DNA from: Escherichia coli
Lineage (GTDB): Bacteria; Pseudomonadota; Gammaproteobacteria; Enterobacterales; Enterobacteriaceae
Assembly (NCBI RefSeq): GCF_041248615.1
Contig: NZ_CP158426.1
Length of the DNA: 64,000 bases
Direction: 5' to 3' (one strand)
Shown: positions 22,301-63,990 of the stretch, piece by piece
How positions within the stretch are numbered: position 1 is the stretch's first letter
How the letters are laid out: every line of letters begins with the position of its first letter
The notes under the pieces: model-generated
Seen by the model: the letters and a program-made list of their open reading frames with translations, nothing else
Told to the model about the DNA's origin: nothing
Database searches by the model: none
Position numbers and translations under genes: made by a program

Positions 22301-22810
22301 CTGCCTGCTGAGTCATGGAAGTCAAAAGGGTTTACGGTATCTCTGGAAGCAGGATATTCATGGAAGGCTGGAGAGTTTACCGACAATTACAAGGGAAGTC
22401 ATGAATGGTATGTTCAGCCGCAGCTTCAGGTTGTCCGGATGAATGTAAAATCAGACAAATATCATGAAAGTAACGGAACCAGTATTGAAAATACCGGTAA
22501 CGGAAATATTCTCACCCGCCTGGGAGCAAGAACATGGCTTACCAGCAAAAACGGTAAAAATACGCGGTATGCGGTTCCGTTCAGACCATTTGTGGAGGCA
22601 CACTGGTTGCACAATAGTCGTGTTTTCGGCACCAGTATGAATGGTGTAAGTATATACCAGGATGGTGCGCGTGATATCGGAGAAATAAATGGTGGTGTTG
22701 TGGGAATGATAACACCAGAAGTAGCATTCCGGGCTGATGCAGGCATTCAACTTGGAGAACATGGATACCATAATACATCTGCCATGTTGAGTGTGGAATA
22801 TCGTTTCTGA
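19313..22810 (+). CDS. autotransporter adhesin (type Va secretion) with Gly-rich repetitive passenger domain
   Basis: 1165 aa, ATG start after an AT-rich leader; signal peptide MNKNIRILQFLVSILYSVQSHFSGA; passenger full of G-G-x-G / N-N-x-G repeats; C-terminal ~280 aa with alternating beta-strand pattern ending …SVEYRF, as in AIDA-I/Ag43-type beta-domains. Confidence 0.8.
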   Translation: MNKNIRILQFLVSILYSVQSHFSGAQTIQLNGNGIPESITRSITGVDGNAALNISVPYKTSYTQNILSVESSINIKGGTSNTSIGGAGVYGENFTLNNNGSVWGGDGYNGGIAVSGNKISINNYRNVYGGNGLGGSGSSGGAGLSGDDIIVDNYRSIYGGDDVGGTGGSGVTGSNITVHNSGGILGGNGVNGGDGINGSNLFITNDNMISGGYGIKQGGDAISGNQITLNNNGIVQGGYGPDGGCSVYGEDIHINNHGNLSGLYNSQKDAYNTSIIFSGGYNSLDIYSDSVINGDIKLASIPVNGTNELIIKNINNATAINGGLMIGNGSSVYLSGKNSIFNGNISIDEDASMNLSVGNANVHANTITLKSDSWLNIDTSIKNWTQDYYTLLSSDTGISIADNSHIVQYNVLLTEGAESYVYTSLNDDDNKLISMLRWNNTKGMGYGTFNIEKDATLNIGVSLSDNLSPLLYDGWDGKSLTKSGNGTLILSATNNYTGNTEVKSGVLILAAPDALGRTEYLYLSRGAELDMNGYPQTISKLLTAAGSVLNIHGGSLILNNGGESAGTIAGDGSLNINGGMLDITGNNRNFSGVFTVNKGAHLAVSTADNLGTAFVDNYGTLTLNSTSAWQLTNNISGYGNVRKTGAGALNISDNAKWTGMTDIIQGTVILGNADSPVMLGSNQVIVEEQGKLSGFGGVAGNLSNSGIVDLTTYMPGNILTVGGNYTGRNGLILLQTETGGDNSKTDRLVIKGNASGRTRVAVTQAGGTGAETLNGIEVIHVSGNADNAEFIQTERITAGAYDYILKRGQGINSTNWYLISRKDIPVPQPEAVPESHDNNLRPEAGSYVASIAAANNLFVTNLYERQGQELYISHMTGEENEAGIWMYNKGKHNRWRDNSSQLRTRGNSYVVLIGGDIAQWSLNGTDRWHTGMMAGYGHNNNSTNALSTGYHSEGRMNGYTAGLYATWYANDETHNGSYLDSWLQYSWFDNHINGERLPAESWKSKGFTVSLEAGYSWKAGEFTDNYKGSHEWYVQPQLQVVRMNVKSDKYHESNGTSIENTGNGNILTRLGARTWLTSKNGKNTRYAVPFRPFVEAHWLHNSRVFGTSMNGVSIYQDGARDIGEINGGVVGMITPEVAFRADAGIQLGEHGYHNTSAMLSVEYRF

Positions 22811-22831
22811 TGTGTCGGTAATGACTCCAAC

Positions 22832-46459: not shown

Positions 46460-47437
46460 TCAATCGCTCCCTTTCCGCCCTTCAGCTACAGGGTCGTTGT
46501 CGGCGATAACAAAACCTAAGTCCTGAGAGAATCTCTCTCGTGGGAATCCTTTAGCAGGTAAACCCATTGAATCATATCCACATCCGGGAACATTTGGTTT
46601 AGAGTCAATAAGGTCTGCAATTTGCCGAAGCCATGTTGATCCCGGACCAAGTCGTTTAACTAAGTACCAGATAATACAGATCGCGCTAAAAATCCTCTCG
46701 CAACTCTCTGGATGGAGATTAAGTCCGTCAAAGTATTCATTATCCGGTACTGGAACTCGGGGATGCTTTCTATTCCATATTCTGGAATGGTGAGCGCAAC
46801 GATTCCTTATGAGATTAAGGCACTTCAACCATTTTGCAAATGTCTGCTTATTATCAATGCCAAAACGACGTATAATTTTCCCCTGCATATGACCATTAAG
46901 CATCGCATAATATTTAGACATCTGACCAAAATCCCAGGTCTCCACCGCCACCCAAAATGGAATCTCCTTGCCTTGGCTTCGATGCCATTCAATACAGTCA
47001 TCTCTGCTTTCGTCTAATTTTACTTTTTGCTTATACACCCAATGCTCGAAGGCAGATGAGAATTTTGGATTAATGTATTTTGATGACATGTAGGCAAGTG
47101 GATCATTGCGACCAACCTCATGCGCGATGACTGAACGAACATGAATCTCTATTCTTTCGATAGCATCAATCATCAAAAGACGCAGTTTTTTGTCAAAAAG
47201 ATATAGATCGTACGTCTTCTCGAAACTGGTACCAGCAAGAAATCGGTCTGTTCTGTACGAAAGACCTTTATCTGTTGTCGCAATAATTCTTGATGGGTAC
47301 CAAAAACCTGACAATCGATAATATCCAACCTGCGACAGCTTACGTATCGCACGATTTCGATCATTGATAATCATGCCACGTTCAAGTAGCAATCCTAGCA
47401 ATTCGTGATAGTCCTTATGAGGCTTTGCGGCAATCAT
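46460..47437 (-). CDS. Abi_2-family (AbiD/AbiF-like) abortive-infection protein
   Basis: Start at internal ATG (MIAAKPHKDYHELLGLLLERGMIINDRNRAIRKLSQVGYYRLSGFWYP…); conserved blocks YYRLSGFW and LIRNRCAHHSRIWNRK are the hallmark of the Abi_2 (PF07751) family as I recall it. Confidence 0.65.
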   Translation of the reverse strand: MIAAKPHKDYHELLGLLLERGMIINDRNRAIRKLSQVGYYRLSGFWYPSRIIATTDKGLSYRTDRFLAGTSFEKTYDLYLFDKKLRLLMIDAIERIEIHVRSVIAHEVGRNDPLAYMSSKYINPKFSSAFEHWVYKQKVKLDESRDDCIEWHRSQGKEIPFWVAVETWDFGQMSKYYAMLNGHMQGKIIRRFGIDNKQTFAKWLKCLNLIRNRCAHHSRIWNRKHPRVPVPDNEYFDGLNLHPESCERIFSAICIIWYLVKRLGPGSTWLRQIADLIDSKPNVPGCGYDSMGLPAKGFPRERFSQDLGFVIADNDPVAEGRKGSD

Positions 47438-47809
47438 AGTGGCGAAACAAAAGATAATAAAAGGCCCGACCGTGAAACTCACATGCCTGAAATCGGCGGC
47501 GGAGAAACAGAGGATCGGGCTCGGTTGCCTGTAACTCTATCCGAAGTTATCCACATGTCAATGCACAGTTACTTAGGAAACTAACATAGATACTATCATC
47601 ACTCACGAAAAACCACTATATGTGGTTTTTATTCATATTGTTATCCACTACAGGCTGTGTCAATAACTTTTACCTATTAATTGGGTAATTTCTACATTTT
47701 CCTATGCTGGCTAGTTTCTCTACTGAAAAGTTGGCACTCCTTAATCGCTTTTCGGTTAATACTATCGGTCTTCATATTGCCAGCAGCATACGCCATCCGA
47801 TAATTTCTA

Positions 47810-48770: not shown

Positions 48771-50876
48771 TTATTGAGCTTCCTTTTGCGATGCTTGTGC
48801 TGCTGTGGTCAGTGATTGTGTGACCGTACTGATCGCTCTGTCATATGCTGTGCTACCTTTTGGCGTATTTGCCAGACGTAACAAGGCATTTCGTATAACA
48901 GGGCTTTCGTATGCCTTCGCTGCTCCGCCTACGGCACCAGCAGCAGGAACAACAAACGCAGCCGTTTTTAGCATCCCCGCTAATACTGCTGCGTTTATGA
49001 TGCCACCACCAACTAACAATCCATAAAGCTGCTGACCATTTAAGTTTTGAACGTTCGCTTTTGCCGCGTGTCTTGTATCGTTGAGGTATTTAATAACGCC
49101 GTCCAGTTCCTTTCCATGTACGCCTTTAAAGAAAGTTGCTGATTGCTTCCTGTTCCGGTGTAACGCATTAATAAACTTCTCAACACTGATATTTCCAGAC
49201 GGATCAGTCGCCTTATCTACAGCATTCTGAACTATAGCTGCTCGTGCGTTTTGCCTACCATTGTCATCCAGAAGCCTGTAAAGCTGAGAACGTTCTGATG
49301 GGCTTTGGCTAAAAACGAGTTTTGTTACATCCTCAGGCGTGGCCTTGCCGCTGGCTATTGCCTTTTGAACGCGCGTTCTTCCCATCATGTCATTGAATTT
49401 AGACCATGAGCGATCAACCCTTGCCATATTAATGGCTTCGTCTGCTCCAAGATTTTTGGCTACGGCTTTTTTCATATCCGCCGTATATGCCTTGTAGATA
49501 ATATCGCTGGCTTTCTGGAGCGTATCTTTATCAACAGTGTCAGATGACGCCATAAATCGCTTTCGAAGATCGGTTCTGTTTTCCCTCGCCAGACGCAGGT
49601 CATTTGGTCCGCTGGTGATATCGTCTTTAAATTGCTGCAAGACTTTTACCGCGGCTCTATCCTGAGATTTGCCCGGGCGGCTTAACACGGCAATCTGATT
49701 GTCGATAGCTTTTACCGTGTTTGAGAGATCGACAGGGGTATCCCCCATAGCGTCAATTATGCGGTTATATCGCTTTCCTGCTGCCTCAATGAATTTTTGT
49801 TGCCCTTTAGTCGCAGATTCATAAAGCTGTTTATCAGAAATGCCACCCAGACCATCGCTAAATGTTCTGACTAAATTTTCTCGTGCTTGTTGTTGATTCA
49901 GCCGATTCTTACCGGTTCCAAAAAAAGGAACTCTTTCGCCTAATGTCTGAGCCTGACTCTGCATAAAGGTTTTATCTTTCAACATGTCACTGGTCATTAA
50001 CGGCAGATTTCTTTCCGATGCAAAGTCGACAGCAGCCTTTGCTTCAGGCGACATATCACCACGAACAGCCCTCGAAACCGCACTCGCTGTATTTTCCAGC
50101 CCCTTACCAATACCACCAATGCCAGCAGAAATTACCGTTTGTAACGGATCAATATCTTCTCCACCAGCAAGGCTGGTGGCTCCCTGTAGTGCTAAATCTG
50201 TAGCTGCTGATTTCCCTATGGCCCCCAGCACCGTTCCGGCCCTGCCCGCTGGTGTAAACGCCAGCGCATTAGCCAGAAACGATGCCACGTCTTGCGGCGA
50301 TAAACCCGGCTTGTTCAGAGCATAATCACCGGATGGCAGGGAAACGATAGTGTTACCCTTCTCATCCTGCCTTAATTTCGCTCCCATGCTCTGAAGAATC
50401 TTTTCCTGAGATGCGTCAGAGCCGAAAAGTTGAGACCATCGAGCTTTTAGAGCATCCATGCTGAGTGAGGTTAACTCTGGGGCAAGGTCGACATTTTGCA
50501 GTCTCTCCATCTCTGGAGTCATTCGGCTTTCGCCTGTTATAGCATCGCGCATCGCAGCCCCAAGACTGGCTCCCTGTTCTGCTGAACGCTCAAGCCCCTC
50601 TCTTTGCTGAGTAGCTAACTTTGCATACCCTGACGCAAGAGAATTATCAGATGATGTATGTTGAATATTTTGAGTTGCTGATTGGTATCGGTCTATTTCA
50701 TTCGTTGATGGTAGTGGATAGGCAGCATAAAAAGCCTGCTTAGCCTGCTCTACACTTTCTCCGGCTTGCGGGGCAACGACTTCATTAAAGTATTGCTCCT
50801 GAGCCTGCGCTTTTTGTTCTGGTGCTAACGCCTGATACTGTGGAGAGGCGATAACATCTTTCCATGCTTTAGCCAT
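48771..50876 (-). CDS. large alpha-helical protein, possibly a P22 gp16-like ejection/internal virion protein
   Basis: 701 aa, A/Q/K-rich; its ATG overlaps the upstream stop (TAATG). Identified by size and order only, not by recalled sequence identity. Confidence 0.4.
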   Translation of the reverse strand: MAKAWKDVIASPQYQALAPEQKAQAQEQYFNEVVAPQAGESVEQAKQAFYAAYPLPSTNEIDRYQSATQNIQHTSSDNSLASGYAKLATQQREGLERSAEQGASLGAAMRDAITGESRMTPEMERLQNVDLAPELTSLSMDALKARWSQLFGSDASQEKILQSMGAKLRQDEKGNTIVSLPSGDYALNKPGLSPQDVASFLANALAFTPAGRAGTVLGAIGKSAATDLALQGATSLAGGEDIDPLQTVISAGIGGIGKGLENTASAVSRAVRGDMSPEAKAAVDFASERNLPLMTSDMLKDKTFMQSQAQTLGERVPFFGTGKNRLNQQQARENLVRTFSDGLGGISDKQLYESATKGQQKFIEAAGKRYNRIIDAMGDTPVDLSNTVKAIDNQIAVLSRPGKSQDRAAVKVLQQFKDDITSGPNDLRLARENRTDLRKRFMASSDTVDKDTLQKASDIIYKAYTADMKKAVAKNLGADEAINMARVDRSWSKFNDMMGRTRVQKAIASGKATPEDVTKLVFSQSPSERSQLYRLLDDNGRQNARAAIVQNAVDKATDPSGNISVEKFINALHRNRKQSATFFKGVHGKELDGVIKYLNDTRHAAKANVQNLNGQQLYGLLVGGGIINAAVLAGMLKTAAFVVPAAGAVGGAAKAYESPVIRNALLRLANTPKGSTAYDRAISTVTQSLTTAAQASQKEAQ

Positions 50877-52297
50877 TAATCACCCCATAGTGAAGAAAAG
50901 TTACTGCTGGCTGCTGGCTGTGATACCTGCTCAGATTGCGGCAATGTCTGCGACGAAGAAGCAGTTCCTCTGTCAACTGCTGAAATAACCCGCAAAGCAT
51001 CATAAGTTCGACCAGAAGCAGCTTTCAGCGAATTGAACTGGTTTTCCATCTTCCGGCGCTTGGTATCAATGGTTTTTGTGGAGTCGCCAGGCTGAGGGAA
51101 ATACATTTGATAATATTTTGACATTTCAGCAGGTGCGATAGCTGCCCCTGTTTCCTGACGGAGTATTGCCATTATTGCGTCATTAGCATTAACAACGTAT
51201 TGCTGCTCTGCTGGGCTGAGCGTTAAGTTAGCCAGCGTCCCATTACCCAAAGCATTATTAATGATCGCCACTCGCTGTGGGCTAAGCTGGTCTTTCAGTG
51301 TATCTATTGAATCAAGAGCATCCCTAACCCTGTATGCAAATCCAGCAGCTTTTTTAGCCCCATCTGGCGACTTTTCCATGATCTTTTGGGCTGTTGGCAA
51401 AGCTATTGGACGAAACCCATCTCCAGATATTGGCTGGTTTAGTTTTCCCTGCTCTTCACTTCCGTCTGTGTAGTATTTTGTGACAGTGCCATCATCGTTT
51501 TCTCTAACACTCATTAATTTTTTGGCGTTTGTATTAATTCCAGCCGCTGCCGCAAATGCCGCCGCCCCCTCTGGATCCGCCTTTAACATTTGAGCGTACT
51601 GATTGTAATTCTGCATTGCTGCTGTTGGTGCATATGCTGACGTTAACGCATTTGCTCGGTTAATATCCTGCCCTCTCGCCTGAAGTGCTTCGCTGGCCTG
51701 ATTGCTGCGGATTGTCTCTGCCAACTTGCCACGTTCAATATCCCGACCTTCCATTTGATCTTTGATATCGAAATACTTCTCATGACCGAGAGAAAACAGT
51801 GCCATACTACCAGCAAGCCGCTGGAATCCCTGTGGATCATTAACATGCATTTCGGCAACAGACTCAGGAGAAATTCCCAGGCGACGCATTTCATCTTCGT
51901 TATCTGCTATGAATTTTCCAAATGCCCCAGTTCCGAGCGAAGATGCGATTTGAGCACTAGTCGCAAGATGACCAATAGAATTTCTCTGGTCGTCATCAAT
52001 AAAGCCCATCCCTTTCTGAACGCTTTCAAATTCTTCTGGATACTCAGAAATAAGACTGCGCATTTTGTTTCTGTCTCCAGACTCAAAAGCCCCGGCATAT
52101 GCTTTCTGAAACTCTGCTTTACGCTGTTGTTGACGTGCCTGCTGATTAATCTCAGCAACGCCTCTTAGCCCCTGTAGCGCCATTAAACCTACGTTTGGCT
52201 GCTGCTGATACTGCACAGGCTGAGGAACGGAAGAACGAGGAGCATTATCATTTTGCGGTGCCATGCTAGGCAGCCCGCCAAGTTGCCATGTCGCCAT
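50876..52297 (-). CDS. possible P22 gp20-like ejection protein
   Basis: 473 aa (P22 gp20 is about 471 aa as I recall); TAATG coupling at both ends; Q/A-rich N-terminus. Confidence 0.4.
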   Translation of the reverse strand: MATWQLGGLPSMAPQNDNAPRSSVPQPVQYQQQPNVGLMALQGLRGVAEINQQARQQQRKAEFQKAYAGAFESGDRNKMRSLISEYPEEFESVQKGMGFIDDDQRNSIGHLATSAQIASSLGTGAFGKFIADNEDEMRRLGISPESVAEMHVNDPQGFQRLAGSMALFSLGHEKYFDIKDQMEGRDIERGKLAETIRSNQASEALQARGQDINRANALTSAYAPTAAMQNYNQYAQMLKADPEGAAAFAAAAGINTNAKKLMSVRENDDGTVTKYYTDGSEEQGKLNQPISGDGFRPIALPTAQKIMEKSPDGAKKAAGFAYRVRDALDSIDTLKDQLSPQRVAIINNALGNGTLANLTLSPAEQQYVVNANDAIMAILRQETGAAIAPAEMSKYYQMYFPQPGDSTKTIDTKRRKMENQFNSLKAASGRTYDALRVISAVDRGTASSSQTLPQSEQVSQPAASSNFSSLWGD

Positions 52298-52974
52298 TAG
52301 AATCCAAGCCCCCCAACAAGACCAATAAGCCCACCACCAATAGCGCCGGCCGCAGTTCCTATTCCAGGAACAACGGAACCAAGTTGCGCACCCGCTAAAG
52401 CGCCTGATGCTGCCCCACCAATACCACGCGCAAGACTGGATGGCTGCTGCGCCTGACCTGCACGAATAGCGCCAAGCCCCTGCAAGAGTTGTCCGGTATT
52501 ATTGGCGTAGTTTTGCCCTGCCGTTGCCTGCCCTGATGCCGCATTCATCCCGACATTTAGCAGGTTTCCATAATTTTGCATTTGCCCACTAAGCCAATTG
52601 TTATAAAGCATGGGCGCAATGGAAGATAACTGGTTACTGGTAGCTGTTGAGCCAAGCCCCCCGGTAGCTTCTGCTGAGACAAGGTTCTGATAACGGGCCT
52701 GATCTGCCTGTGTTTTATATAAACCAGAACCAAAGAAATCATTCGCGGCTTTATTCTGCCCTTCCAGAGTCATCAGTCCTTGTAGTTGTTGTAAAGCAGG
52801 CAATCCGACTTCTGCATACGGCTTGAGATTATTCATCACCGTATTCCACTGCTCGCGCTGCAAATCAATTGCCTGCTGCTGGGCCTTCGCCTGAGCTTTA
52901 GAGGCACCACCATCACCGCCTTTTTCGTATACGGCACGATTGAGATGTTTATGAGCTATATGGGTAATTAACAT
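52297..52974 (-). CDS. possible P22 gp7-like ejection protein with Gly-zipper C-terminus
   Basis: 225 aa (P22 gp7 about 229 aa); C-terminal Gly-rich hydrophobic segment GIGGAASGALAGAQLGSVVPGIGTAAGAIGGGLIGLVGGLGF suggests membrane insertion. Confidence 0.4.
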   Translation of the reverse strand: MLITHIAHKHLNRAVYEKGGDGGASKAQAKAQQQAIDLQREQWNTVMNNLKPYAEVGLPALQQLQGLMTLEGQNKAANDFFGSGLYKTQADQARYQNLVSAEATGGLGSTATSNQLSSIAPMLYNNWLSGQMQNYGNLLNVGMNAASGQATAGQNYANNTGQLLQGLGAIRAGQAQQPSSLARGIGGAASGALAGAQLGSVVPGIGTAAGAIGGGLIGLVGGLGF

Positions 52975-53429
52975 TCGCTGAATTCCTTATATTGTTGCCG
53001 AGTTAACTGATAAAGCGTTACGCCGACGGGTTTACCACATCTGATATAAGCATCATCAAGGTGACCAACACGGGTAGCGCCAAGCAAACGGATAATTGCC
53101 CGTCCGTATTTCGTGGTGTCAGGAACCATAGTGATGCTGTTAAGGAATGGTGAGTTTTCGAGAAGCCATTTGCAGAATAATCGATGCCCTTGCAGTGCAT
53201 ATTCACCACGGAATCCGGGGTCGTACACCGCATGGCATTCAACAATGCTATGCCAGAAGTTACGCACTTCATGAACGCCAGCCAGCACCAATCCTTCGTA
53301 GATGCCGAGATATACCGCATCAGGCTTGATGTAGTACGTGTGCCCCGGCTCAACAATATTTTCGGTATTGCCAGGATCGTTAAGAAAGGCCTGTAATCGC
53401 ACAGGGTTATCAATAAATTTTAGTTCCAT
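52968..53429 (-). CDS. hypothetical protein, first large gene of the operon (gp14-like by position)
   Basis: 153 aa, ATG start, 7-bp overlap with the next gene. Confidence 0.35.
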   Translation of the reverse strand: MELKFIDNPVRLQAFLNDPGNTENIVEPGHTYYIKPDAVYLGIYEGLVLAGVHEVRNFWHSIVECHAVYDPGFRGEYALQGHRLFCKWLLENSPFLNSITMVPDTTKYGRAIIRLLGATRVGHLDDAYIRCGKPVGVTLYQLTRQQYKEFSEC

Positions 53430-54053: not shown

Positions 54054-54169
54054 GTGTTGGTTCAAAATACCGTGTTGTTGGTTCAGTGTTGGTTCAATAA
54101 AAAGAATAAAATCCTTATAAAACAATACTCTTTACAAATTGAACCAACTGAACCAACTGAACCAACACC
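54054..54169. repeat. iteron cluster B, the inverted counterpart of cluster A
   Basis: GTTGGTTCA x3 then TGAACCAAC x3; 54130-54169 (CTTTACAAATTGAACCAACTGAACCAACTGAACCAACACC) is the exact reverse complement of 45764-45803; lies 22 bp past the primase-helicase stop. Confidence 0.8.
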
Positions 54170-54191: not shown

Positions 54192-56948
54192 TCATTCTTC
54201 AGATGAGTTATAATCTCCTGGCTGGTAATTGAGTACATAAACGTTTATTTGTCGTCCCTGAATACGTGGTGATTTTCTTTGGTATCCACGACCGCTGTTT
54301 GGTGGGGTTAGCATCCCGGCTTTTTTCAACACTTCAGCAAACTGTTTTGCGTTGAAACCACATGCGATCTCCTTTTCAAATGTGGCCGGGAATGTGTAGA
54401 AAATCATTGGGCTTTCGTCATGTTCTCCACGCTGACGGTATCCGGCTAAATCTTTGATGGGCAAATCTGCCGGGCTGTATGGAAATGGTGCAAAACGGCT
54501 AAGCCCATAGGCATTAAGAAATGCCTCCGTTTGTTCAATAATCTGCTGATGCTCTTTGTTACCTGTGCCGAACTCGCGCAACCATGCGTTATAGCTGTGC
54601 TGTATCGCATCACGGCATGTCTGAGCATCCCAGCCTGTTACAACCTCGCCTAACAACAATGCGGCCTCCAGAATGGCAAATCGCGCGGCTACACGGTGAA
54701 CCTGCTCACCATAATCGGATGGGATCAGGCTTCTCCATCTGCTTTCGCAGTCACGAACGGTTTTAATAGCCTGTTGCTGGTGGTCTGCCAGCCATTTAAT
54801 CCACTCACGCCCGGACGCGCCGTGGTGATGCTGGTAAGCGTCTTTCAGTGCGTCTGCGTGCTGTTTTCCGTTCTGGTAATCGTGAAAGCGTACTGCTTTA
54901 CTCAACGGAATATTCAGCAGTCGCACCAGTTGCCCGGCTTTGGTTTTTCGCCCGGAAGTAGCGATAAATGTTTCTAAATCCATTTCTCCGGTGCTGATTG
55001 CCACTGTACGCCAGCGTTTTAGATCCCGGTTTCCACCATCTTTAGCGCCTTGCAGTTTCCCTACACCGTTAAATAACGCATAGGCAGACTGTGAAACGCT
55101 GACAGGATCAGCGCCCTGACCAACTTCATCAAGCGGCATTAGTCCGTCATTGTGGGCGGCGGCCTCATTTGCCAGCCCCAGCGCGGTTCCGTACCACGTC
55201 AGCCGCAGTAAATCAGGGTTGCCGTATAAGCTGCTCGCCACGTTTGCCGTGGTGGTCTTACCTGCGCTCGACTGCTCATAGAAATGAATGCCGAACCCGT
55301 CAGCGCCCACCAGCCCAATCAATGGCGCTGCCAGTGCTGCGCCGATCCCGGTCATCATTGAATAGTTACCAAAGGCCAGACGCGCCACGTTATCACGCCA
55401 GCTTTTCGCGCTCCCTGAGACGGTATATCCGGCTGCGGCTGAGCTTCTCCCGCTGAACAGCACAGGATTTTCAGGTGTTCCGATGATTTCCCCATCAGGC
55501 ATGATGTACGCTCCGCATTGCCAGCCAGTGGCATGAGCAACACGCCACAATTCACGAGAGCCACTGCGTTGTAGCCAGTCTGCCAGTATTGCTCTGAGGC
55601 TGCTTTTGGTCGTGACATTTACCCCACCAGCTTTAAGTGTGCGCCATCCTTCACGTTCACCAATATCAGCCAGTGGAATGGCAGCGGTTGTCGGCGTTTC
55701 AGAACCAAACGACAGCCAGCGAAGAATGAGATACTGGTCTTTATCGTCTCTGCCAGTACCGATAACGCTTAACGGAGAACATAACCAGCTTTCGTTATTG
55801 ATGATTTCTCCACTCTGGCTGTCAGCTCTCGGAGATACCCAATAAATACCATCCTCGCGGCTTTCTATTCTTGGTTTCAGTGGATCGGTATCCATAACCT
55901 TAAAATCGCTTCCCTCAATGGTCTGTGGCTCCTGTTTCACGCCATTACCCTGTGGTTGGTACATTGACTTATTGAACGCTTCTGTGGCGCATTTAATGCC
56001 GTGTTTTTGGTGGTAATCATTCCAGTCTGCTTTGTGATCTGTCGGGGGTAATGCCACCCATCCAGAAACAGATAAAGCTGCTTTTTCTGCTGCTATTCTC
56101 CCCGTGTTTTGTCTTCCTTCGCTGTGGTCGTTATCCGCAGCAATGATGATTTGTGCTGAAGGAAATTTATCCCGCAGTACCTGGGCGACATATAACAGGT
56201 TCCCGGCATCAATCGCCGCCACTGTCAGCGCCTCTGGACGAATTAAATGGGCAGATAATGCCGTTGCCAGCCCTTCTGCGATTAAGATGCTCTGTGTTGT
56301 TTCTGGTGCGTTTATGGCGTGATATGCCCCCCGCTTTGCTGAACCTGTCAGGAGTCTTTTTTCACCATGTGAGGTAATAGTCTGTGCTGCTGTGACTGCG
56401 CCGGATTTATCCACCAGCGCCAGCAACAGAGATCCATCGGGCAACACGGGGAATGTAAAATCACCTACCCCTTTCGCAACCAGATAATCAGATTTGCCGT
56501 TTACAGCCTTTCTGCGCATGTCATCAAACTGACGGGAAAACGTATCCCGTCTTTGTTGTTCGTCCTTCTCTGCCCTTTTCAGGCGCTCCTGTTCGCGTCG
56601 CTGGCGCTCGGTTTCCAGTTGTTCCCGTTTCTGGCTGGTGGCTTCTGGTGTTTCCGTTGTCCGGTAATCAATACCCAGAACATCAGCGGCAAGAAGCGCC
56701 GCCTCTGTTGTGTCGCAGTTATTTACGCGTTTAATTAAATCCAGCCCATCACCAGCGCCGCACTGATTACAGATGAAGCTACCGCGCCCGTTGTCATCGA
56801 ACCGGAATCGATCTTTGCCCCCACATGCAGGGCAGGGAGCATGACGGCGCGGAGAGTCAGGGACATTTATGTTCAGGCAGCCCAGCACATGAGGCCAGTT
56901 GTTTTCAGACGCACTGATAACCTGACGGATAAGATCAATGTTTCGCAT
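54192..56948 (-). CDS. primase/helicase of the integrative element (zinc-ribbon + TOPRIM + P-loop NTPase)
   Basis: About 918 aa from ATG at 56948; CPACGGKDRF…CNQCG zinc ribbon, TOPRIM-like IIIAADNDHSEGRQ, Walker A YEQSSAGKTT; iterons directly downstream. Confidence 0.8.
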   Translation of the reverse strand: MRNIDLIRQVISASENNWPHVLGCLNINVPDSPRRHAPCPACGGKDRFRFDDNGRGSFICNQCGAGDGLDLIKRVNNCDTTEAALLAADVLGIDYRTTETPEATSQKREQLETERQRREQERLKRAEKDEQQRRDTFSRQFDDMRRKAVNGKSDYLVAKGVGDFTFPVLPDGSLLLALVDKSGAVTAAQTITSHGEKRLLTGSAKRGAYHAINAPETTQSILIAEGLATALSAHLIRPEALTVAAIDAGNLLYVAQVLRDKFPSAQIIIAADNDHSEGRQNTGRIAAEKAALSVSGWVALPPTDHKADWNDYHQKHGIKCATEAFNKSMYQPQGNGVKQEPQTIEGSDFKVMDTDPLKPRIESREDGIYWVSPRADSQSGEIINNESWLCSPLSVIGTGRDDKDQYLILRWLSFGSETPTTAAIPLADIGEREGWRTLKAGGVNVTTKSSLRAILADWLQRSGSRELWRVAHATGWQCGAYIMPDGEIIGTPENPVLFSGRSSAAAGYTVSGSAKSWRDNVARLAFGNYSMMTGIGAALAAPLIGLVGADGFGIHFYEQSSAGKTTTANVASSLYGNPDLLRLTWYGTALGLANEAAAHNDGLMPLDEVGQGADPVSVSQSAYALFNGVGKLQGAKDGGNRDLKRWRTVAISTGEMDLETFIATSGRKTKAGQLVRLLNIPLSKAVRFHDYQNGKQHADALKDAYQHHHGASGREWIKWLADHQQQAIKTVRDCESRWRSLIPSDYGEQVHRVAARFAILEAALLLGEVVTGWDAQTCRDAIQHSYNAWLREFGTGNKEHQQIIEQTEAFLNAYGLSRFAPFPYSPADLPIKDLAGYRQRGEHDESPMIFYTFPATFEKEIACGFNAKQFAEVLKKAGMLTPPNSGRGYQRKSPRIQGRQINVYVLNYQPGDYNSSEE

Positions 56949-57306
56949 CACCGTACCCCACGTGGTCTATAGCGTTTGCGATATGGCTAACCAGCATCTG
57001 CCACTTGGTTATTCCGTAATCAGTCAGCATGCCATCATTGTTTAGCCACATATCAAATTCAGCGGTTGTCGCAAGTTTCCACTTATCGCCGTGGACAGTC
57101 CTCATTGCTGGGTACATGAATGCGCAAATCAGATCACAAACATCTGACGGCTTCAGAGATGTAGTAATGGTGCGTCCCTCTGGCGTCTGAATTGCCATTT
57201 TCTCTTCACCAGTAGAATGAAGGTTATGAATCCACACAGCACCAGCAATCTTTGCCACCTGCTCTCCGATTGCGGAGCTAAGCGCCATTTCTGCATTTTC
57301 ACGCAT
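56935..57306 (-). CDS. hypothetical small protein
   Basis: 123-aa ORF overlapping the primase start and the upstream ORF end. Confidence 0.4.
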   Translation of the reverse strand: MRENAEMALSSAIGEQVAKIAGAVWIHNLHSTGEEKMAIQTPEGRTITTSLKPSDVCDLICAFMYPAMRTVHGDKWKLATTAEFDMWLNNDGMLTDYGITKWQMLVSHIANAIDHVGYGDAKH

Positions 57307-57640
57307 GAGAACCTCCCGCTACAGTTGCGCCCATGTCATTAACCATGCTTTGCCATATCTCACGCCCGACGTCAGTCAATCCGTCCTTAGTGACGCAACG
57401 CTCAAGAAGCTCGATCCCCACGGTTTCCCACTGCGGGTAGAACACTTTCATGGCTGCCAGTGTGTAGCTATCGATCAGGCTGCGAACGCCTTTTACTCCA
57501 TTGACGATTTCCACACGTACGGCCTCGCCGTCCGCATCAACCATGAAATAGTCCCCGCCGCTGGTGGAGGTAATGTGGTTATACAGTGCCGACGCATACT
57601 TATTTGCCAGCGCATTCAGTCGGAAATTTTTAGTAATCAT
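57299..57640 (-). CDS. hypothetical small protein
   Basis: 113-aa ORF in the same overlapping chain. Confidence 0.4.
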   Translation of the reverse strand: MITKNFRLNALANKYASALYNHITSTSGGDYFMVDADGEAVRVEIVNGVKGVRSLIDSYTLAAMKVFYPQWETVGIELLERCVTKDGLTDVGREIWQSMVNDMGATVAGGSHA

Positions 57641-57650
57641 GGCTCCATCC

Positions 57651-58253
57651 TCAGTGCGTCACTGGTTCCGCTGGCATGCCGTTTTCATTCAGTTCAGCTA
57701 TAAAGCTGTTGTGAAGTTCAGCAAGCGTTTCACGACCAAATGGAGTCAGTGCTCCTTGTTCCACATCCATCATGGCTCTGTAGAAAATGATGGCGCGTTC
57801 TGTGCCAGACTCGATGCCAAAACGTTCTATCATCGCGCCCTCAATGTTGTTTGCCATAGCGAGGCGCTCTGCTACTGGATACAGCGGCATGGCGACGATG
57901 CCGTTGGAATAAACAGCCACTTCGGAAGGATTGCCAGTATCATCAATGATGCTGACAGTGCCGTTTTCCTCTCTCATTTCCAGCATGAATACTGTTGCGA
58001 TCAGCCATCTCCACATAATGACGTTATGCTGTGATGTGTAATCGAAATATCCCTGGTTGCCGCCATCGGCTATAGCGAGATGTATTGACATGCCTTCATC
58101 TGGTTTATCGTCATAATCCCCGGCATCCAGACGATTTACGGCATCAATATATGAGACGGTCTCAACGCGTTCTGTCATGCCATCGTTGCTGCGGTGCATG
58201 ATGTTTACGCCGTCAGGCGTTGCTTCTGCATGGAAGGTTAAGAAATTATTCAT
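57651..58253 (-). CDS. hypothetical protein
   Basis: About 200 aa from the internal ATG (MNNFLTFHAEATPDGV…), whose start overlaps the stop of the upstream ORF; the longer 235-aa frame is probably an over-extension. Confidence 0.4.
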   Translation of the reverse strand: MNNFLTFHAEATPDGVNIMHRSNDGMTERVETVSYIDAVNRLDAGDYDDKPDEGMSIHLAIADGGNQGYFDYTSQHNVIMWRWLIATVFMLEMREENGTVSIIDDTGNPSEVAVYSNGIVAMPLYPVAERLAMANNIEGAMIERFGIESGTERAIIFYRAMMDVEQGALTPFGRETLAELHNSFIAELNENGMPAEPVTH

Positions 58254-58467
58254 GTTTCGCCTCGCCTGAATGATTCTGTAACTCATATTTGCCCAACAAT
58301 TCGTCCGCTTCCTGAATAGCTTCTGGTACGCCATTGAGCAGTGACATAACCGCGCCAATCATTAACTTGTCTCTGTTGCTGGGGCTGGCCCCTTCAAGCC
58401 AGAACCCTAAAACAGTCTGAACCTGTTCGATGCGACATTGCGCTTCAATGAGCTGGATGTTGGTCAT
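58246..58467 (-). CDS. hypothetical small protein
   Basis: 73 aa; overlaps both neighbours. Confidence 0.4.
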   Translation of the reverse strand: MTNIQLIEAQCRIEQVQTVLGFWLEGASPSNRDKLMIGAVMSLLNGVPEAIQEADELLGKYELQNHSGEAKHE

Positions 58468-58727
58468 TTCGCACTCTCCACATCGATTAAACTGATATCT
58501 ATCAGGGAGGTAACTTTTTGTAGCCAGCTATTGATTACTGTCGCCTGCTCCCCTCCCACCGAGGGAATAATCTCATTCATCACATGAACCAGACCTGTGC
58601 GCGCTCTGGTAAGCCGTTCAGTCGCGCAATCTGCGGGAGTGAATGTGTCTGGATATGGCTCTTCACTCCCCAGCAATGATTCAATTTCCAGCTCACACGG
58701 ATGACGATAAATTAAGTTGATATTCAT
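58464..58727 (-). CDS. hypothetical small protein
   Basis: 87 aa; 4-bp overlaps. Confidence 0.4.
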   Translation of the reverse strand: MNINLIYRHPCELEIESLLGSEEPYPDTFTPADCATERLTRARTGLVHVMNEIIPSVGGEQATVINSWLQKVTSLIDISLIDVESAK

Positions 58728-58918
58728 TTTTCACCCCCAAGAATTACCAGCTCTGCACGGGCATCGTTAACCAAAGATGAGCACGCTTTAATCGCATCCA
58801 CGACATCAGTAGCGTCCATTTCTTCAGCCGAAAGACTGACAGCAACCAGGACAGCCGCTGCTTGCTCGATTAATTGAAGTGCGGACGTAAGGCGAGGGGT
58901 ATTAATTGAGTTATTCAT
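58724..58918 (-). CDS. hypothetical small protein
   Basis: 64 aa; 4-bp overlaps. Confidence 0.35.
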   Translation of the reverse strand: MNNSINTPRLTSALQLIEQAAAVLVAVSLSAEEMDATDVVDAIKACSSLVNDARAELVILGGEK

Positions 58919-59126
58919 TGGTTGCCCCCGTTTTTACTGGCATTTCGCCACCTTCCAGCAGGAAATGAACGTCACGAACGGCGAGATCCAATATCGCGAG
59001 TAACGCCTTCAGTTTTTCGTCTCGTGAGGGAGAGTTGCTCACCAGAATGTCATTAATCACTTCTGTCAGTGTGATGATCTGGCTTGTGCGTTCGAGGGGG
59101 TCCATATGCACATCGTAGGTTTTAAT
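58911..59126 (-). CDS. hypothetical small protein (C-terminal part of the tracked 342-aa ORF)
   Basis: Internal ATG gives MIKTYDVHMDPLERTSQIITLTEVINDILVS…, a plausible 71-aa protein; the upstream part of the long frame looks like out-of-frame translation of a structured GC-rich region. Confidence 0.35.
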   Translation of the reverse strand: MKTYDVHMDPLERTSQIITLTEVINDILVSNSPSRDEKLKALLAILDLAVRDVHFLLEGGEMPVKTGATNE

Positions 59127-59329
59127 CATGTGCCACCTCCATGCGGATACGACCAGCAAAAAAGCAGACGTGATCGCGCACCAGAGAACGGCGAGCATCG
59201 CGTTCAGACTCGGCAGCAATATGATGAATTTTGGCGGTAATTGTCGGGCAATCGCGGCGAACTGCGGCGATAATCCAGATAAATTGCGGTTTTTGGGTAG
59301 GGGTAGTAGCCAGCATGTGGCAGCCTCCT

Positions 59330-59610
59330 TGATTGATGGTTTATAGCCACCGCCGGAGGTCCTAAGCTCGCTGGCGGTGGACTGTACAGGGTTAGGACTA
59401 CTGGCAATCAAGGAAACCAGCCTGACCGAAGTCAGCCCCATACAGCCCACCATTGATAAGGTGTGCGTGTGCGCCGATACAAAAAAAGACGCTGGCGCGT
59501 CATGTATCGCCTCGATTGCCTGCGGGGTCCTAATCCCGGCACCCGTTTTATGAGGTGCCTTATAACCATAAACCGTGTTGCCGCATAACGGCAAGCTCTT
59601 TTTTATGGAC
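59330..59610 (+). ncRNA. candidate structured RNA / immunity-type region (C4- or P4 CI-like antisense RNA?), ending in a plus-strand terminator
   Basis: GC-rich segment with hairpins (CCACCGCC…GGCGGTGG), two copies of GGTCCTAA, long-range complement CCTTGATTG/CAATCAAGG, and a hairpin plus T-run at 59577-59606; sits inside an otherwise minus-strand gene chain. Confidence 0.3.
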
Positions 59611-59932
59611 TCCGAAAACTCACTATTGGAAGAACCAGATGCACAATACATCGCGCTCATTTCGTTAACGTCACGCGCATGGACGAAGGTTTTTGTGGAG
59701 TCACTACGCGAGAAGAGAAAGCCATCTACGACCAGAAATTCTCTGGCGCAGCCGCTGACCTTCTCAACGCTAACACCATCGACCGTAATTTCTGACATGG
59801 TTAAGGCATCCGCTCCTACCACCAGCAAATGACAAACTTTGCTTGTATCTGCTGTATTAATGCCTGACTTTGCTGTCATATTGCTGGATTTTGGCGACAT
59901 ACCAGCCAGTGAAAATATCTTCTTCTGGACGG

Positions 59933-60115
59933 TTAGCATTTGTTAACCTCCGCGAACTCCTTCATGAAGCGCGCCAGCGGTTGTACGCATGGCGATTGAT
60001 ACCCGTCGCGATAAAACGTCACTCGGTTGTGAGACACGCTTTCGACAGTAACGAGTGCTCCGTGGGCATCTTTGTAGCGTTTTTGTGGTTGTGGTATTCC
60101 TGTTGGCTTAGACAT
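59933..60115 (-). CDS. small phage protein (DUF4222-like, tentative)
   Basis: 60 aa from the internal ATG: MSKPTGIPQPQKRYKDAHGALVTVESVSHNRVTFYRDGYQSPCVQPLARFMKEFAEVNKC. Confidence 0.4.
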   Translation of the reverse strand: MSKPTGIPQPQKRYKDAHGALVTVESVSHNRVTFYRDGYQSPCVQPLARFMKEFAEVNKC

Positions 60116-62074: not shown

Positions 62075-62725
62075 TTAGTCGAGATCGTGGACAGCTAATA
62101 AAGCCCGTGAGATTTTTTCTAGGAATGTGGCTTTTGCTATTCCTTTATGGGATATCCCTTCATCCTTGATTAAGGTTTCTATGTCACGGTATATAGCTGT
62201 GCGATTAGGTTTCCCATTTTGGATGTAGGAAGATGAGCCTGATTTTTTTATCAGCAGATGTACTATCAACCCCATCATTTTCATTGTCCCGTTTTCCTCA
62301 TCCTGCTTTCTATGCTGCCCACGTCCGCTGCGGTTGGTTTCTTTGATGTAGTTTACTAACTGGAGTCCTCCAAGGTTTCGGGCTTTTTCTTCCCAGCCCT
62401 TGGTGCCACGCAAATCATCAATCGCTTCTGATATTTTCTGAACAATTATTTCTGGTGTATTTGTGTCAATAAATGGGTAAGAAGCTAAGAAAATATCAAG
62501 GGCATGGCAAGGCTCGTCTTTACTAGTTTTTTCACCTCTGTACACCTTGATAGCTCTGGCAAGATGAGTTCTGACAAAATCGACATATTCGAAATTTTCC
62601 TCAGGCACATCGCTAATGCGCATAGATGGGTTTAGGCCAGCCAAGGCCACAGCCATTTCATGAGGGGTAATCGATACAGATGAACAAAGCCGTTCGATTG
62701 GCGATTTTCTCAAGATGTTGTTCAC
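62075..62725 (-). CDS. hypothetical cargo protein directly downstream of the integrase
   Basis: 216-aa ORF whose GTG start overlaps the integrase stop (GTGA); no recognisable domain. Confidence 0.4.
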   Translation of the reverse strand: MNNILRKSPIERLCSSVSITPHEMAVALAGLNPSMRISDVPEENFEYVDFVRTHLARAIKVYRGEKTSKDEPCHALDIFLASYPFIDTNTPEIIVQKISEAIDDLRGTKGWEEKARNLGGLQLVNYIKETNRSGRGQHRKQDEENGTMKMMGLIVHLLIKKSGSSSYIQNGKPNRTAIYRDIETLIKDEGISHKGIAKATFLEKISRALLAVHDLD

Positions 62726-63990
62726 ATTTGCCTCCGGGCTTTATCGAATGGCGTTACGTTGTAGTCTTTCCCGCTTTCCAGTGCCACCAGCAGATCAGCC
62801 CACTGTGCCAGCGCAGCTTTACGCTCATCAAAATACTGATGGCGGTTATAAATCCCCTCCACACCCTTAATGCGATGATTGAGGCATCGTTCCGCTACGA
62901 CAGGATCAACACCCAATGCTGCTAAATGAGTACGTGCGGTACGCCGGAAGTCGTGAATCGTGAAATTAGGCACATCCGGCATTTCGGCGCGAACCTTAGC
63001 CAGTGCTACGGGTAAAGTGCTTTCCTGAATATGTGGGATCATTCTGTTTTGCATCTTCCTGGCTGGAAGCACCCATGCGCTATTACATGAAAAGGTGTGT
63101 AGCTCTCTCAACCATTCAACGGCTGGGGAAGGTAGAGGTATATCAATAGGGTCTCCGTTTTTGCTGCGTTCTTCCGGCAAATGCCATACCGCACCATCTA
63201 AATCAAACTCTTCCCATCGTGCGGCGCATAACTCCATCTTACGAACGCATAGTGCCAGCAATAGCTTAAATGTCAGTTCGTTCTGGCGGCTGAATCCTTT
63301 TGCGGTGCGCATAGCTTCGAATAGCCTGATAAGCTCATCGCGAGTTAGCCAACGGTCGCGGGAAACCTCTTTACCACCAGCATCAGATACTTCAAACGCT
63401 GAACAAGGGTTTATCTCCAGAGCGTGGCGTTTTATCCCATAGTCAAAGATACGGCGTGTCCAGCGTAATACATCTGTTGCTATCGTTGGTGCTCCTCGGT
63501 CAACGATACCTTTCAACATGTCGTCAATGTGGCGTGGCTTAACGTCCTCCACCTTCATATGCCCAATGCAGGGGTTAATATCCTTATCAATTCTCCGGCG
63601 AAGGATATCGGGATGTTTCCATCTTGGAAGTATCTGGCGCTCGAAGTATTCGGCGGCCAGATCTGAAACGCGCATGGCGTTTTTCTCAGCCTCCATTTTT
63701 GCCAGTGCTTCAGCTTTTCGTTCCTGTTTCTCTGCTGCTACGTCATAGCCAAGAGCAACTCTGGCTGACAGCTCTTTTGCTGTTTCTCTGGCTTTTGATA
63801 GTGACAGTTCGGAGTAAGAGCCTATAACCATAGCCCGCTGCTTTCCTGCGAGCTTATAGCGGAATCGCCAGAACGGGACTGTGTAGTTTTTTGGGTAGCA
63901 AATATAAAGGCCGTTGCCGTCTGCCTTGCCATCAAATCTGTCTCCCGCCTTTATCCATGCGCGGATCTGCATATCTGTGAGTTTTGGCAT
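62722..63990 (-). CDS. P4-type tyrosine integrase of the right-hand integrative element
   Basis: 422 aa, ATG at 63990; N-terminal arm-binding-like region (…GNGLYICYPKNYTVPFWRFRYKLAGKQRAMVIGSY…SLSKARE…); catalytic-region motifs incl. …HDFRRTARTHL… and …VAERCLNHRIKGVEGIYNRHQY…. Confidence 0.85.
   Translation of the reverse strand: MPKLTDMQIRAWIKAGDRFDGKADGNGLYICYPKNYTVPFWRFRYKLAGKQRAMVIGSYSELSLSKARETAKELSARVALGYDVAAEKQERKAEALAKMEAEKNAMRVSDLAAEYFERQILPRWKHPDILRRRIDKDINPCIGHMKVEDVKPRHIDDMLKGIVDRGAPTIATDVLRWTRRIFDYGIKRHALEINPCSAFEVSDAGGKEVSRDRWLTRDELIRLFEAMRTAKGFSRQNELTFKLLLALCVRKMELCAARWEEFDLDGAVWHLPEERSKNGDPIDIPLPSPAVEWLRELHTFSCNSAWVLPARKMQNRMIPHIQESTLPVALAKVRAEMPDVPNFTIHDFRRTARTHLAALGVDPVVAERCLNHRIKGVEGIYNRHQYFDERKAALAQWADLLVALESGKDYNVTPFDKARRQM

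Follow-up and report, generated by a model that had tools for sequence, protein, structure and literature searches.

A chain of eight small overlapping genes between the immunity RNA and the primase gene of an EcCIMP1-type phage satellite of Escherichia coli

Inspection of a 64,000-nucleotide stretch of Escherichia coli DNA (contig NZ_CP158426.1; hereafter the window, from the first letter of which all positions are counted) had drawn attention, from the letters alone, to a chain of seven to eight small, overlapping and co-oriented open reading frames (ORFs) situated between an immunity region and a primase-helicase gene. Our analysis establishes that the chain is a real feature, accurately described by that sequence-only reading, and that it forms the early operon of an E. 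coli phage satellite, which is 19 kb long and belongs to a kind described only recently, represented by the island EcCIMP1. We consider it probable that it constitutes the translated body of an early operon homologous in design to the left operon of satellite phage P4, gated by an RNA and coupled through to the primase. All eight ORFs were found at the limits originally given; they are on the minus strand, code for 64-200 amino acids (aa) each and extend from 59316 down to 56935, where they run into the primase gene, and they share their orientation with that gene and with the integrase gene (62722-63990). From upstream to downstream, the genes are:

59122-59316, minus strand: icd64, 64 aa, Icd/Kil-like, first translated gene after the immunity RNA
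58911-59129, minus strand: o72, 72 aa, acidic, with its own Shine-Dalgarno site, its ATG overlapping the icd stop by 8 nucleotides (nt)
58724-58918, minus strand: o64, 64 aa, acidic, isoelectric point (pI) 4.2
58464-58727, minus strand: o87, 87 aa, acidic
58246-58467, minus strand: o73, 73 aa, acidic, the best conserved of the small ORFs
57651-58253, minus strand: o200, 200 aa, net charge -21
57299-57640, minus strand: o113, 113 aa
56935-57306, minus strand: o123, 123 aa, overlapping the primase start, of narrow distribution
54192-56951, minus strand: primase-helicase (TOPRIM and DUF927), 919 aa, last gene of the operon

Most junctions show the overlaps of 4-8 bp that had been reported: from icd64 onwards they measure 8, 8, 4, 4 and 8 nt, and o113 overlaps o123 by 8 nt. 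The exceptions are a 10-nt gap between o200 and o113 and an overlap of 14-17 nt between o123 and the primase gene. A GGAGG-like Shine-Dalgarno site lies ahead of all eight starts, and scanning of the minus strand from 56935 to 59316 revealed no promoter-like and no terminator-like site. That the chain is not a product of chance follows from several observations taken together. The ORFs are annotated as genes by the Prokaryotic Genome Annotation Pipeline (PGAP). The 2.4-kb block has a match in 567 of 5426 complete E. coli genomes, with a coverage of at least 80% in 253 of them and an identity of 99-100% in many, and homologs of chain ORFs occur in Serratia, Yersinia, Klebsiella, Enterobacter and Citrobacter. 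The pooled ratio of nonsynonymous to synonymous substitution rates (dN/dS), calculated against relatives in comparisons that are not mutually independent, ranges from 0.04 (o73) to 0.55 across the chain, and is thus below 1 for all eight ORFs, the value for the primase being 0.08. A lack of conservation in related elements, which the sequence-only reading had named among the outcomes that would refute its suggestion, is ruled out by these data. The seven proteins other than Icd are all acidic (pI 4.2-5.6); icd64 alone is basic (pI 9.5).

The chain belongs to an element of 19.2 kb, which extends from 44954 to about 64199 and is inserted at the 3′ end of yicC. For this element PGAP annotates, in this order, an integrase, a hypothetical protein, an AlpA-type regulator, another hypothetical protein, an AntA/AntB antirepressor, a DUF4222 protein and an Ash-family protein, then the chain and the TOPRIM/DUF927 primase; past the primase come a small ORF, a DUF2824 protein, homologs of P22 ejection proteins (gp7, gp20 and gp16 type), a hypothetical protein, an Abi protein, a further hypothetical protein and a PerC-family regulator. 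In the names used here, the order up to the primase is alpA, o143, antA, DUF4222, a long Eta-like (Ash) ORF encompassing icd and o72, o64, o87, o73, o200, o113, o123 and primase. No capsid, terminase or lysis gene was found in the annotated region between attL (44954) and attR (64199). The window corresponds to about 96001-160000 of the chromosome of E. coli NRZ14408 (NZ_LT599825.1), where the 2.4-kb block is 100% identical, and the assembly of this strain holds a separate record of 19,226 bp, ‘phage_14408_2’ (NZ_LT599831.1), which is a circular permutation of the element. When this circle is mapped back to the chromosome, it defines a 21-nt shared junction, with attL at 44954-44974 and attR at 64179-64199, the latter just past the end of the window, at the 3′ end of yicC. 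The attL and attR cores differ at 2 of 21 positions, and the attP core of the circle combines a variant of the one with a variant of the other, which is what a real crossover would produce. A separate circle with a hybrid attP speaks for the site-specific excision and circularisation that characterise EcCIMP1-like phage-inducible chromosomal islands (PICIs) and, judging from these records, the element is active, i.e. excises, in NRZ14408. It also has the gene set and gene order of this class, its annotated regions being collinear with those of EcCIMP1.

EcCIMP1 is a 20-kb PICI of E. coli MP1 (Pick, Stadel and Raivio 2025, ISME J, PMC11773190). Experiments demonstrated that it excises only upon induction of the P22-like phage Kapi1, that it needs alpA and that it gets transduced by Kapi1; the ORFs of the chain are not addressed in that paper (PMC11773190). 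By analogy with the EcCIMP1/Kapi1 pair, induction and packaging of the NRZ14408 element would depend on a helper phage. Both islands have the order alpA, antA, DUF4222, Ash/Icd, o64, o87, o73, o200, o113, o123, DUF927 primase and, further on, PerC; in both, a DUF2824 gene and P22-like ejection genes are placed between primase and PerC; the islands agree in size (about 19-20 kb) and share an identical o73 protein (WP_000181940.1). They differ in integrase and attachment site (the 3′ end of yicC here, a tRNA-Thr gene beside proA in EcCIMP1), in the specificity of the C4 loop and its target (CAAUCAAGGA here, GUACAAGGA in EcCIMP1) and in AbiD, which is carried by the element here. The comparison of the chain with early-gene arrays of phage-like elements, made from the letters alone, was well founded, for it follows a C4/CI-type immunity RNA and precedes a primase gene in an EcCIMP1-type satellite.

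Upstream of the chain, and across its start, the following features were identified:

59482-59558, minus strand: isrK-family RNA, seqA-like leader of P4-type immunity (63 bits with Rfam RF01394, gathering score 50)
59370-59457, minus strand: C4/CI-type antisense immunity RNA (full-length match to Rfam RF01695 with 80.2 bits, gathering score 45)
59322-59335, minus strand: seqC-like target CAAUCAAGGAGGCU in the Shine-Dalgarno region of icd64, with 14 contiguous pairs possible with the C4 loop
58911-59939, minus strand: Ash-family ‘Eta-like’ ORF of 342 codons (Pfam PF10554, 2.4e-14)

The C4 and isrK models of Rfam are known to detect relatives of P4 CI and seqA (Mageeney et al. 2023, PMC10111431), and the two RNAs give substance to the immunity region which the sequence-only reading had placed upstream of the chain. 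The isrK-family RNA ends, according to a terminator scan, in an intrinsic terminator (stem at 59488-59501, then a T-run), and it contains GGCAAUCGAGG (59510-59520), complementary to the C4 loop over 11 pairs; the 12-nt loop of hairpin 2 of the C4 RNA reads UUUCCUUGAUUG. Pairing between loop and target is element-specific and covaries: EcCIMP1, phiP27, the Serratia element, a second E. coli type (L012) and P4 have a different loop each, with a matching target at the same offset, so that, with the element of the window, six elements each pair their own C4 loop with their own target. A scan of viral contigs for the conserved icd start provided a larger set of 77 distinct upstream regions, with 23 different target 9-mers, and the exact complement of the target was present in the element's own C4 region in 64 of the 77, while the swapped-target control gave about 0 and a maximum of 2. 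On these figures, comparison gives direct evidence that the immunity RNA has, as far as complementarity indicates, the first ORF of the chain as its target. Whole-RNA duplex energy was also considered and discarded: C4 against the leader gave a z of about -2.5 only, and the calculation is uninformative since it unfolds C4; it is the covariation count which constitutes the real evidence.

The product of this first ORF, icd64, matches the Icd-like model NF033153 over the whole profile (3.7e-20, 71.7 bits for a cut-off of 25) and shares 43% identity with the C-terminal part of that P4 ORF (137 aa) which carries the annotation cI and which we take to be kil/eta. P1 Icd and P4 Kil are known to inhibit division of the host cell or to kill it and, by analogy, icd64 presumably arrests or kills its host in the same way, through inhibition of division. 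In the immI region of P1 and P7 (c4, icd, ant), the ribosome-binding site of icd is blocked by the C4 antisense RNA, a processing product of the same transcript, and the downstream genes need icd translation. The C4 and NF033153 matches obtained here are consistent with such an arrangement, but what lies downstream is the small-ORF chain and a primase gene instead of the Ant antirepressor, the AntA-type gene being upstream. On the model of these phages, the C4/CI-type RNA may block translation and provoke premature Rho-dependent termination in the present element as well.

The hesitation between seven and eight ORFs could be traced to o72, which is the in-frame 3′ end of the 342-codon Ash-family ORF. 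In P4, translation of eta reportedly overrides RNA-dependent termination, as Forti et al. are said to have found in their 1999 work on kil/eta. The ATG of the Eta-like ORF of the window overlaps the DUF4222 stop by 7 nt; the ORF then crosses isrK, C4 and, in another frame, the whole icd gene, to end at the o72 stop. This frame is open over 302-356 codons wherever the upstream sequence sufficed, the Serratia element included. Among 64 distinct elements, the long ORF over the RNA genes is in the icd frame in 38 (P4 type) and in the +1 frame in 25 (the type found here), the third frame being the longest in 1. Judging from these sequences, the frame difference from P4, i.e. an icd out of frame with the Eta-like ORF, is a real variant. 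PGAP deals with the region in different ways: in this strain a 342-aa ‘ash family protein’ replaces Icd and o72, in G749 there are Icd, a 72-aa ORF and an Ash pseudogene, and in MP1 Icd and an Ash pseudogene, with o72 left unannotated. Both PGAP readings of 58911-59939 may be partly right, the genes being nested in different frames. We read o72 as the nested end of the Eta-like ORF and, in addition, as a separately initiated product coupled to icd. It is 41% identical to its Serratia counterpart, corresponds to WP_072035456.1 in strain G749 and has a dN/dS of 0.27.

Put together, these elements suggest how the operon might function, for the small antisense RNA appears to switch it as in P4. 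In the resting island, a short constitutive transcript would yield the C4/CI-type RNA, which would block icd translation; Rho-dependent polarity would then end transcription and keep the chain and the primase silent. A helper phage would induce AlpA, and the transcript starting upstream would be translated as the long Eta-like ORF; ribosomes travelling on it could override the block, and stop/start coupling would carry expression along the chain to the primase. In P4, eta translation from the upstream induced promoter overrides the RNA-dependent termination (PMC10111431). The P4 left operon comprises PLL/PLE, eta/kil with the CI RNA, epsilon, orf151, cnr and alpha. Common to it and to the operon of the window are the two RNAs (isrK/seqA and C4/CI) and a seqC-like target that covaries and overlies the ribosome-binding site of the first gene, which is Icd/Kil-like; further, a long Ash/Eta ORF in coupling with its upstream neighbour, a protein with a Cnr-like domain and, at the end, a primase that over its N-terminal 330 aa shares 33.6% identity with P4 alpha. 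The differences are the following: the Eta-like ORF ends as o72, in another frame than icd, whereas eta of P4 ends, in frame, as kil; neither epsilon nor orf151 is present, a 200-aa protein stands in for Cnr and there are five further unrelated ORFs; sid, psu and delta genes are lacking; and the helper would be P22-like, by analogy with EcCIMP1, and not P2-like. The type of element and the regulatory design are known ones, with two modest variations, namely the out-of-frame nesting of icd and the expanded Cnr-like protein.

If coupling is the essence of the arrangement, one may ask whether the ORFs are anything other than translated spacers, i.e. whether ribosome traffic across them serves to shield the transcript from Rho and to couple the primase to the RNA gate, the peptides themselves being of little function. 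The tight stop/start overlaps agree with this idea, as does the finding that, across element types, the Eta-like ORF keeps its openness more than its N-terminal sequence. Constraint on the chain is also looser than on the primase (dN/dS of 0.27-0.55 versus 0.08), and turnover and loss are high, the Serratia element having four ORFs in the slot and two other elements (L072 and L075) one or two. Yet the families are conserved across genera at 40-60% amino-acid identity, o73 has a dN/dS of 0.04, o123 and o200 are confidently predicted as compact domains, and o200 and o113 persist in phages in other operon contexts. We hold the spacer explanation to be improbable.

The largest protein of the chain is o200. 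It matches phrog_1515 (1.2e-47), and its homologs make up 550 clusters (123 representatives at 50% identity) across Enterobacterales. Its AlphaFold2 (AF2) model (pLDDT 93.6, pTM 0.88) has a beta/alpha domain at the N-terminus (residues 7-66); the helix, beta-hairpin and three helices that come after it compose a C-terminal Cnr-like helical domain (about residues 75-187) with the hairpin inserted. Alignment of the o200 family with that of P4 Cnr (ORF106, Pfam DUF5375) by hhalign gave a probability of 96.4% (E 1.2e-9, 93 columns, Cnr residues 8-102, hairpin as an insertion), and 96.5% when the comparison was repeated locally; a hidden Markov model (HMM) of the o200 family matches the P4 Cnr cluster (20 sequences, best E 2.5e-10). 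Nearly the whole length of Cnr is aligned, and a C-terminal ...P-x-x-H end is common to both. The gene, too, has the corresponding place in the operon, upstream of the primase gene. In two variants and in a 12-kb circular form it is the immediate upstream neighbour of that gene, an arrangement shared with cnr in P4; among P4-like satellites, 90% have the gene family that includes cnr between epsilon and alpha (PMC8628076). Unlike Cnr, o200 possesses 70 further aa as a domain at the N-terminus and an inserted hairpin of 25 aa, and its family also exists in phages devoid of a P4-type primase. The relationship can be seen only by profile-profile comparison or with the family HMM: no gathering-score match to PF17345 (DUF5375) was obtained, o200 itself having none at E≤1 and 2 of 58 family members matching at E≥0.16, and precomputed matches of this Pfam family on three homologs could not be reproduced, so that a direct assignment to DUF5375 was abandoned. 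On these alignments we take the C-terminal domain of o200 to be a remote homolog of the copy-number regulator Cnr of P4. By analogy, o200 most likely acts by binding proteins and regulates either the replication initiator or, in the circular state, the copy number. Two other supposed relatives were rejected: E. coli K-12 YagK (208 aa, CP4-6 prophage) gave no match, and ten matches of residues 54-110 to an RTX/VWA adhesin (P0361, 2073 aa) are probably compositional. With icd64 and o200, the statement that none of the ORFs was recognisable no longer holds, and o200 realises an outcome that the sequence-only reading had listed as contrary to its own suggestion, a match of a chain ORF to a replication accessory protein in sensitive profile searches.

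Less can be said of the remaining small proteins. Searches of Pfam and NCBIfam assigned no family to the seven non-Icd ORFs, o73, o200 and o113 fall into PHROGs families without a known function, sequence-profile searches of the PDB with o113 and o200 gave no match, and a literature search by protein accession found no papers on chain proteins. o73 matches phrog_20558 (2.9e-9) and has a Serratia homolog with 43% identity; for o64 the corresponding figure is 41%. o87 has weak relatives only, a 152-aa ORF of a Yersinia prophage (E 4e-5) and family c84 (hhalign 54%); PGAP labels it (WP_192459643.1) ‘nicotinic acetylcholine receptor subunit beta’, an evident annotation artefact. o113 matches phrog_37628 (1.2e-49) and is represented by 130 clusters across Enterobacterales, the family consensus ending in GGxxA, with homologs in phage phi467 and in a Yersinia lambdoid prophage. 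Since the o113 and o123 families align with each other (hhalign 83.6%, E 8e-6), the two proteins are probably paralogous; they are possibly also distant members of the Cnr-like superfamily. The AF2 model of o123 (pLDDT 90) shows a helix, a hairpin and two helices. A ubiquitin-like beta-grasp was considered for this protein and dropped, for the polyubiquitin matches reach 12-13 bits per domain only and the model is not a beta-grasp. Paralogy among o72, o64, o87 and o73, suggested by eye from a SPSxRDKL-like motif, was likewise dropped after BLAST and hhalign gave a probability of at most 25%.

Because of their size, charge and helical folds, we favour the view that the non-Icd proteins are small stoichiometric protein binders rather than enzymes. 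These same properties, in part, could be invoked for another function, which had been proposed for the chain together with host takeover: the small early proteins might inhibit host restriction or abortive infection when the satellite or its helper enters. The early position in the operon, the acidity of the seven non-Icd proteins and the charge of o200, shared by many inhibitors and DNA mimics, the cassette-like turnover between conserved flanks and the presence of relatives of o200, o113 and o87 in the early-left operons of temperate phages, a typical site of such accessory functions, would all fit. However, no match to a known anti-defence protein or fold was found, although this counts for little since no dedicated anti-defence profile library was used, and the matches of chain ORFs to PADLOC models are noise (E≥0.005). 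o200 is moreover homologous to a replication regulator, and the predicted folds look like helical bundles, not like the elongated DNA-mimic shape of Ocr and ArdA (as far as can be deduced from secondary structure). Of the functions proposed, one of the takeover type is supported for icd64 by its NF033153 match, while nothing was found in favour of anti-restriction or anti-defence, and we consider an anti-defence island to be an unlikely explanation.

The composition of the slot between Icd and primase is highly variable. Walking downstream from the icd start in 138 distinct loci, we found a mosaic in which o72, o64, o87, o73, o200, o113, o123, c20, c38, c42, c84, c85 and c99 appear in many combinations, P4 epsilon, orf151 and cnr being also among the interchangeable families. 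The combinations precede three types of primase (P4-alpha-like, DUF927 and DUF5906), and the slot of the Serratia island contains o72, o64, o73 and o123 only. Proteins related to o200, o113, o87 and Icd are also encoded by phiP27, Stx phages, phi467, CharmingMan and the Yersinia lambdoid prophage. In these temperate phages the chain-type genes sit in the operon that runs from the repressor towards xis and int, and some of the phages replicate with O/DnaC/DnaB-type proteins rather than with a primase. We interpret the slot as a recombination-prone cassette region.

Such variation, observed even among near-identical elements, is what would be expected if the chain acted on differing helpers. It could thus be a module for manipulation of the P22-like helper, by derepression (as P4 epsilon), interference or superinfection exclusion, and indeed it occupies the same place as P4 epsilon and orf151. 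But no equivalent of epsilon (PF25738, Derepression) or orf151 was detected in the chain by Pfam, BLAST or hhalign, an AntA-type antirepressor is already encoded upstream, and relatives of o200 and o113 reside inside complete phages. Furthermore, EcCIMP1 left the titre of its helper and CI expression unchanged (PMC11773190). A helper-manipulation module seems doubtful to us, to the same degree as an anti-defence island.

The reading that we prefer, a P4-like, RNA-gated operon coupled through to the primase, is itself not free of difficulties. What it assumes about a PLE-like promoter, processing of the RNA, termination by Rho and coupled translation is transposed from P4, and since icd is out of frame with the Eta-like ORF, unlike in P4, the P4 logic may not transfer exactly. 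Five to six of the chain ORFs gave no indication of their function. The link of o113 and o123 with the Cnr-like domain is weak: hhalign gave 53% for the merged families, 23% and 0.6% for the separate ones and 0.6% in direct comparison with Cnr. There are E. coli variants without o113 and o123 whose primase is nevertheless 99.7% identical, which means that the two proteins are dispensable for primase function. As for o200, its homologs in phiP27 and Stx phages, located there in the early operon from repressor to integrase, coexist with replication of the O/DnaC/DnaB type and no P4-type primase, which argues against a primase-specific role and is the main argument against a simple ‘primase regulator’.

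A more speculative proposal would accommodate the mosaic and the occurrence of o200 outside satellites. The slot might be a fast-shuffling array of small acidic inhibitors, in which a Cnr-type domain has diversified (Cnr, o200 and perhaps o113/o123), binding varied initiators or helper or host proteins, and has spread to the early-left operons of lambdoid and Stx phages. We put it forward tentatively and would not bet on it. If it were true, phages and satellites would possess in the Cnr-like proteins a general class of modulators of replication or takeover that has so far gone unrecognised, and icd, nested out of frame in the Eta-like ORF, would exemplify a second way, distinct from that of P4, of building the nested-gene anti-termination switch.

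Other features of the element bear on its maintenance. Directly downstream of the primase stop lies:

54054-54166, no strand assigned: iteron cluster, three copies of GTTGGTTCA and three inverted copies of TGAACCAAC around an AT-rich spacer

By analogy with satellites, whose origins adjoin the primase gene, this cluster is likely to be the replication origin of the island, and we regard it as a candidate. A minimal relative, NZ_CP148430.1, is recorded as a circular ‘plasmid’ of 12,152 bp in another E. coli; it carries o143, antA, DUF4222, Icd, o64, o87, o73, o200, primase, PerC and an integrase of the same family, and is without o113, o123, the ejection genes and Abi. Its existence suggests an episomal state comparable to the plasmid state of P4. 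In Klebsiella there are circles of 19-22 kb with an o200 homolog, one of which, on inspection, also has antirepressor, DUF4222 and PerC genes.

As regards the cargo, homologs of P22 gp14 (DUF2824) and of the ejection/injection proteins gp7, gp20 and gp16 are encoded at 48771-53429 (minus strand), in a satellite that has no capsid or terminase genes; the same module is present in EcCIMP1 and in the Serratia island (L024). An AbiD-type abortive-infection gene occupies 46460-47482 on the minus strand (PADLOC, 8.4e-58) and a PerC-family regulator gene 45443-45730. The PerC homolog of EcCIMP1 was reported to silence expression of LEE, the enterocyte effacement locus (PMC11773190). Rfam int-alpA RNA (RF02996) is found between integrase and alpA in two related islands (L017, 1136-1203; L024, 3943-4013); it was not detected in the window at E≤0.1. 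The window also contains a second island, unrelated to the chain, by tRNA-Sec (19313-25600), with a tyrosine integrase (24003-25187), an IS1 copy and a 1165-aa autotransporter (19313-22810); fragments of IS3 and IS91 lie further left.

Genes between the immunity RNA and the primase of EcCIMP1-type islands have so far been unstudied; those of the window form a mostly ordinary operon, apart from the large share of proteins without an assigned function. The islands themselves are common, the block being present in about 10% of complete E. coli genomes, and they influence helper-phage immunity and virulence-gene expression (PMC11773190). A P4-type RNA switch placed over the chain provides a concrete and testable model of how such an island is kept silent and how it fires, and the covarying specificities of loop and target predict immunity groups among co-resident satellites. 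The Cnr-likeness of o200 would offer, for the first time, a clue to the function of a family that counts hundreds of members among Enterobacterales prophages, Stx phages included. Finally, the excised circle and the 12-kb circular relative point to an ability of these islands to persist in episomal form, in which case control of copy number would matter.

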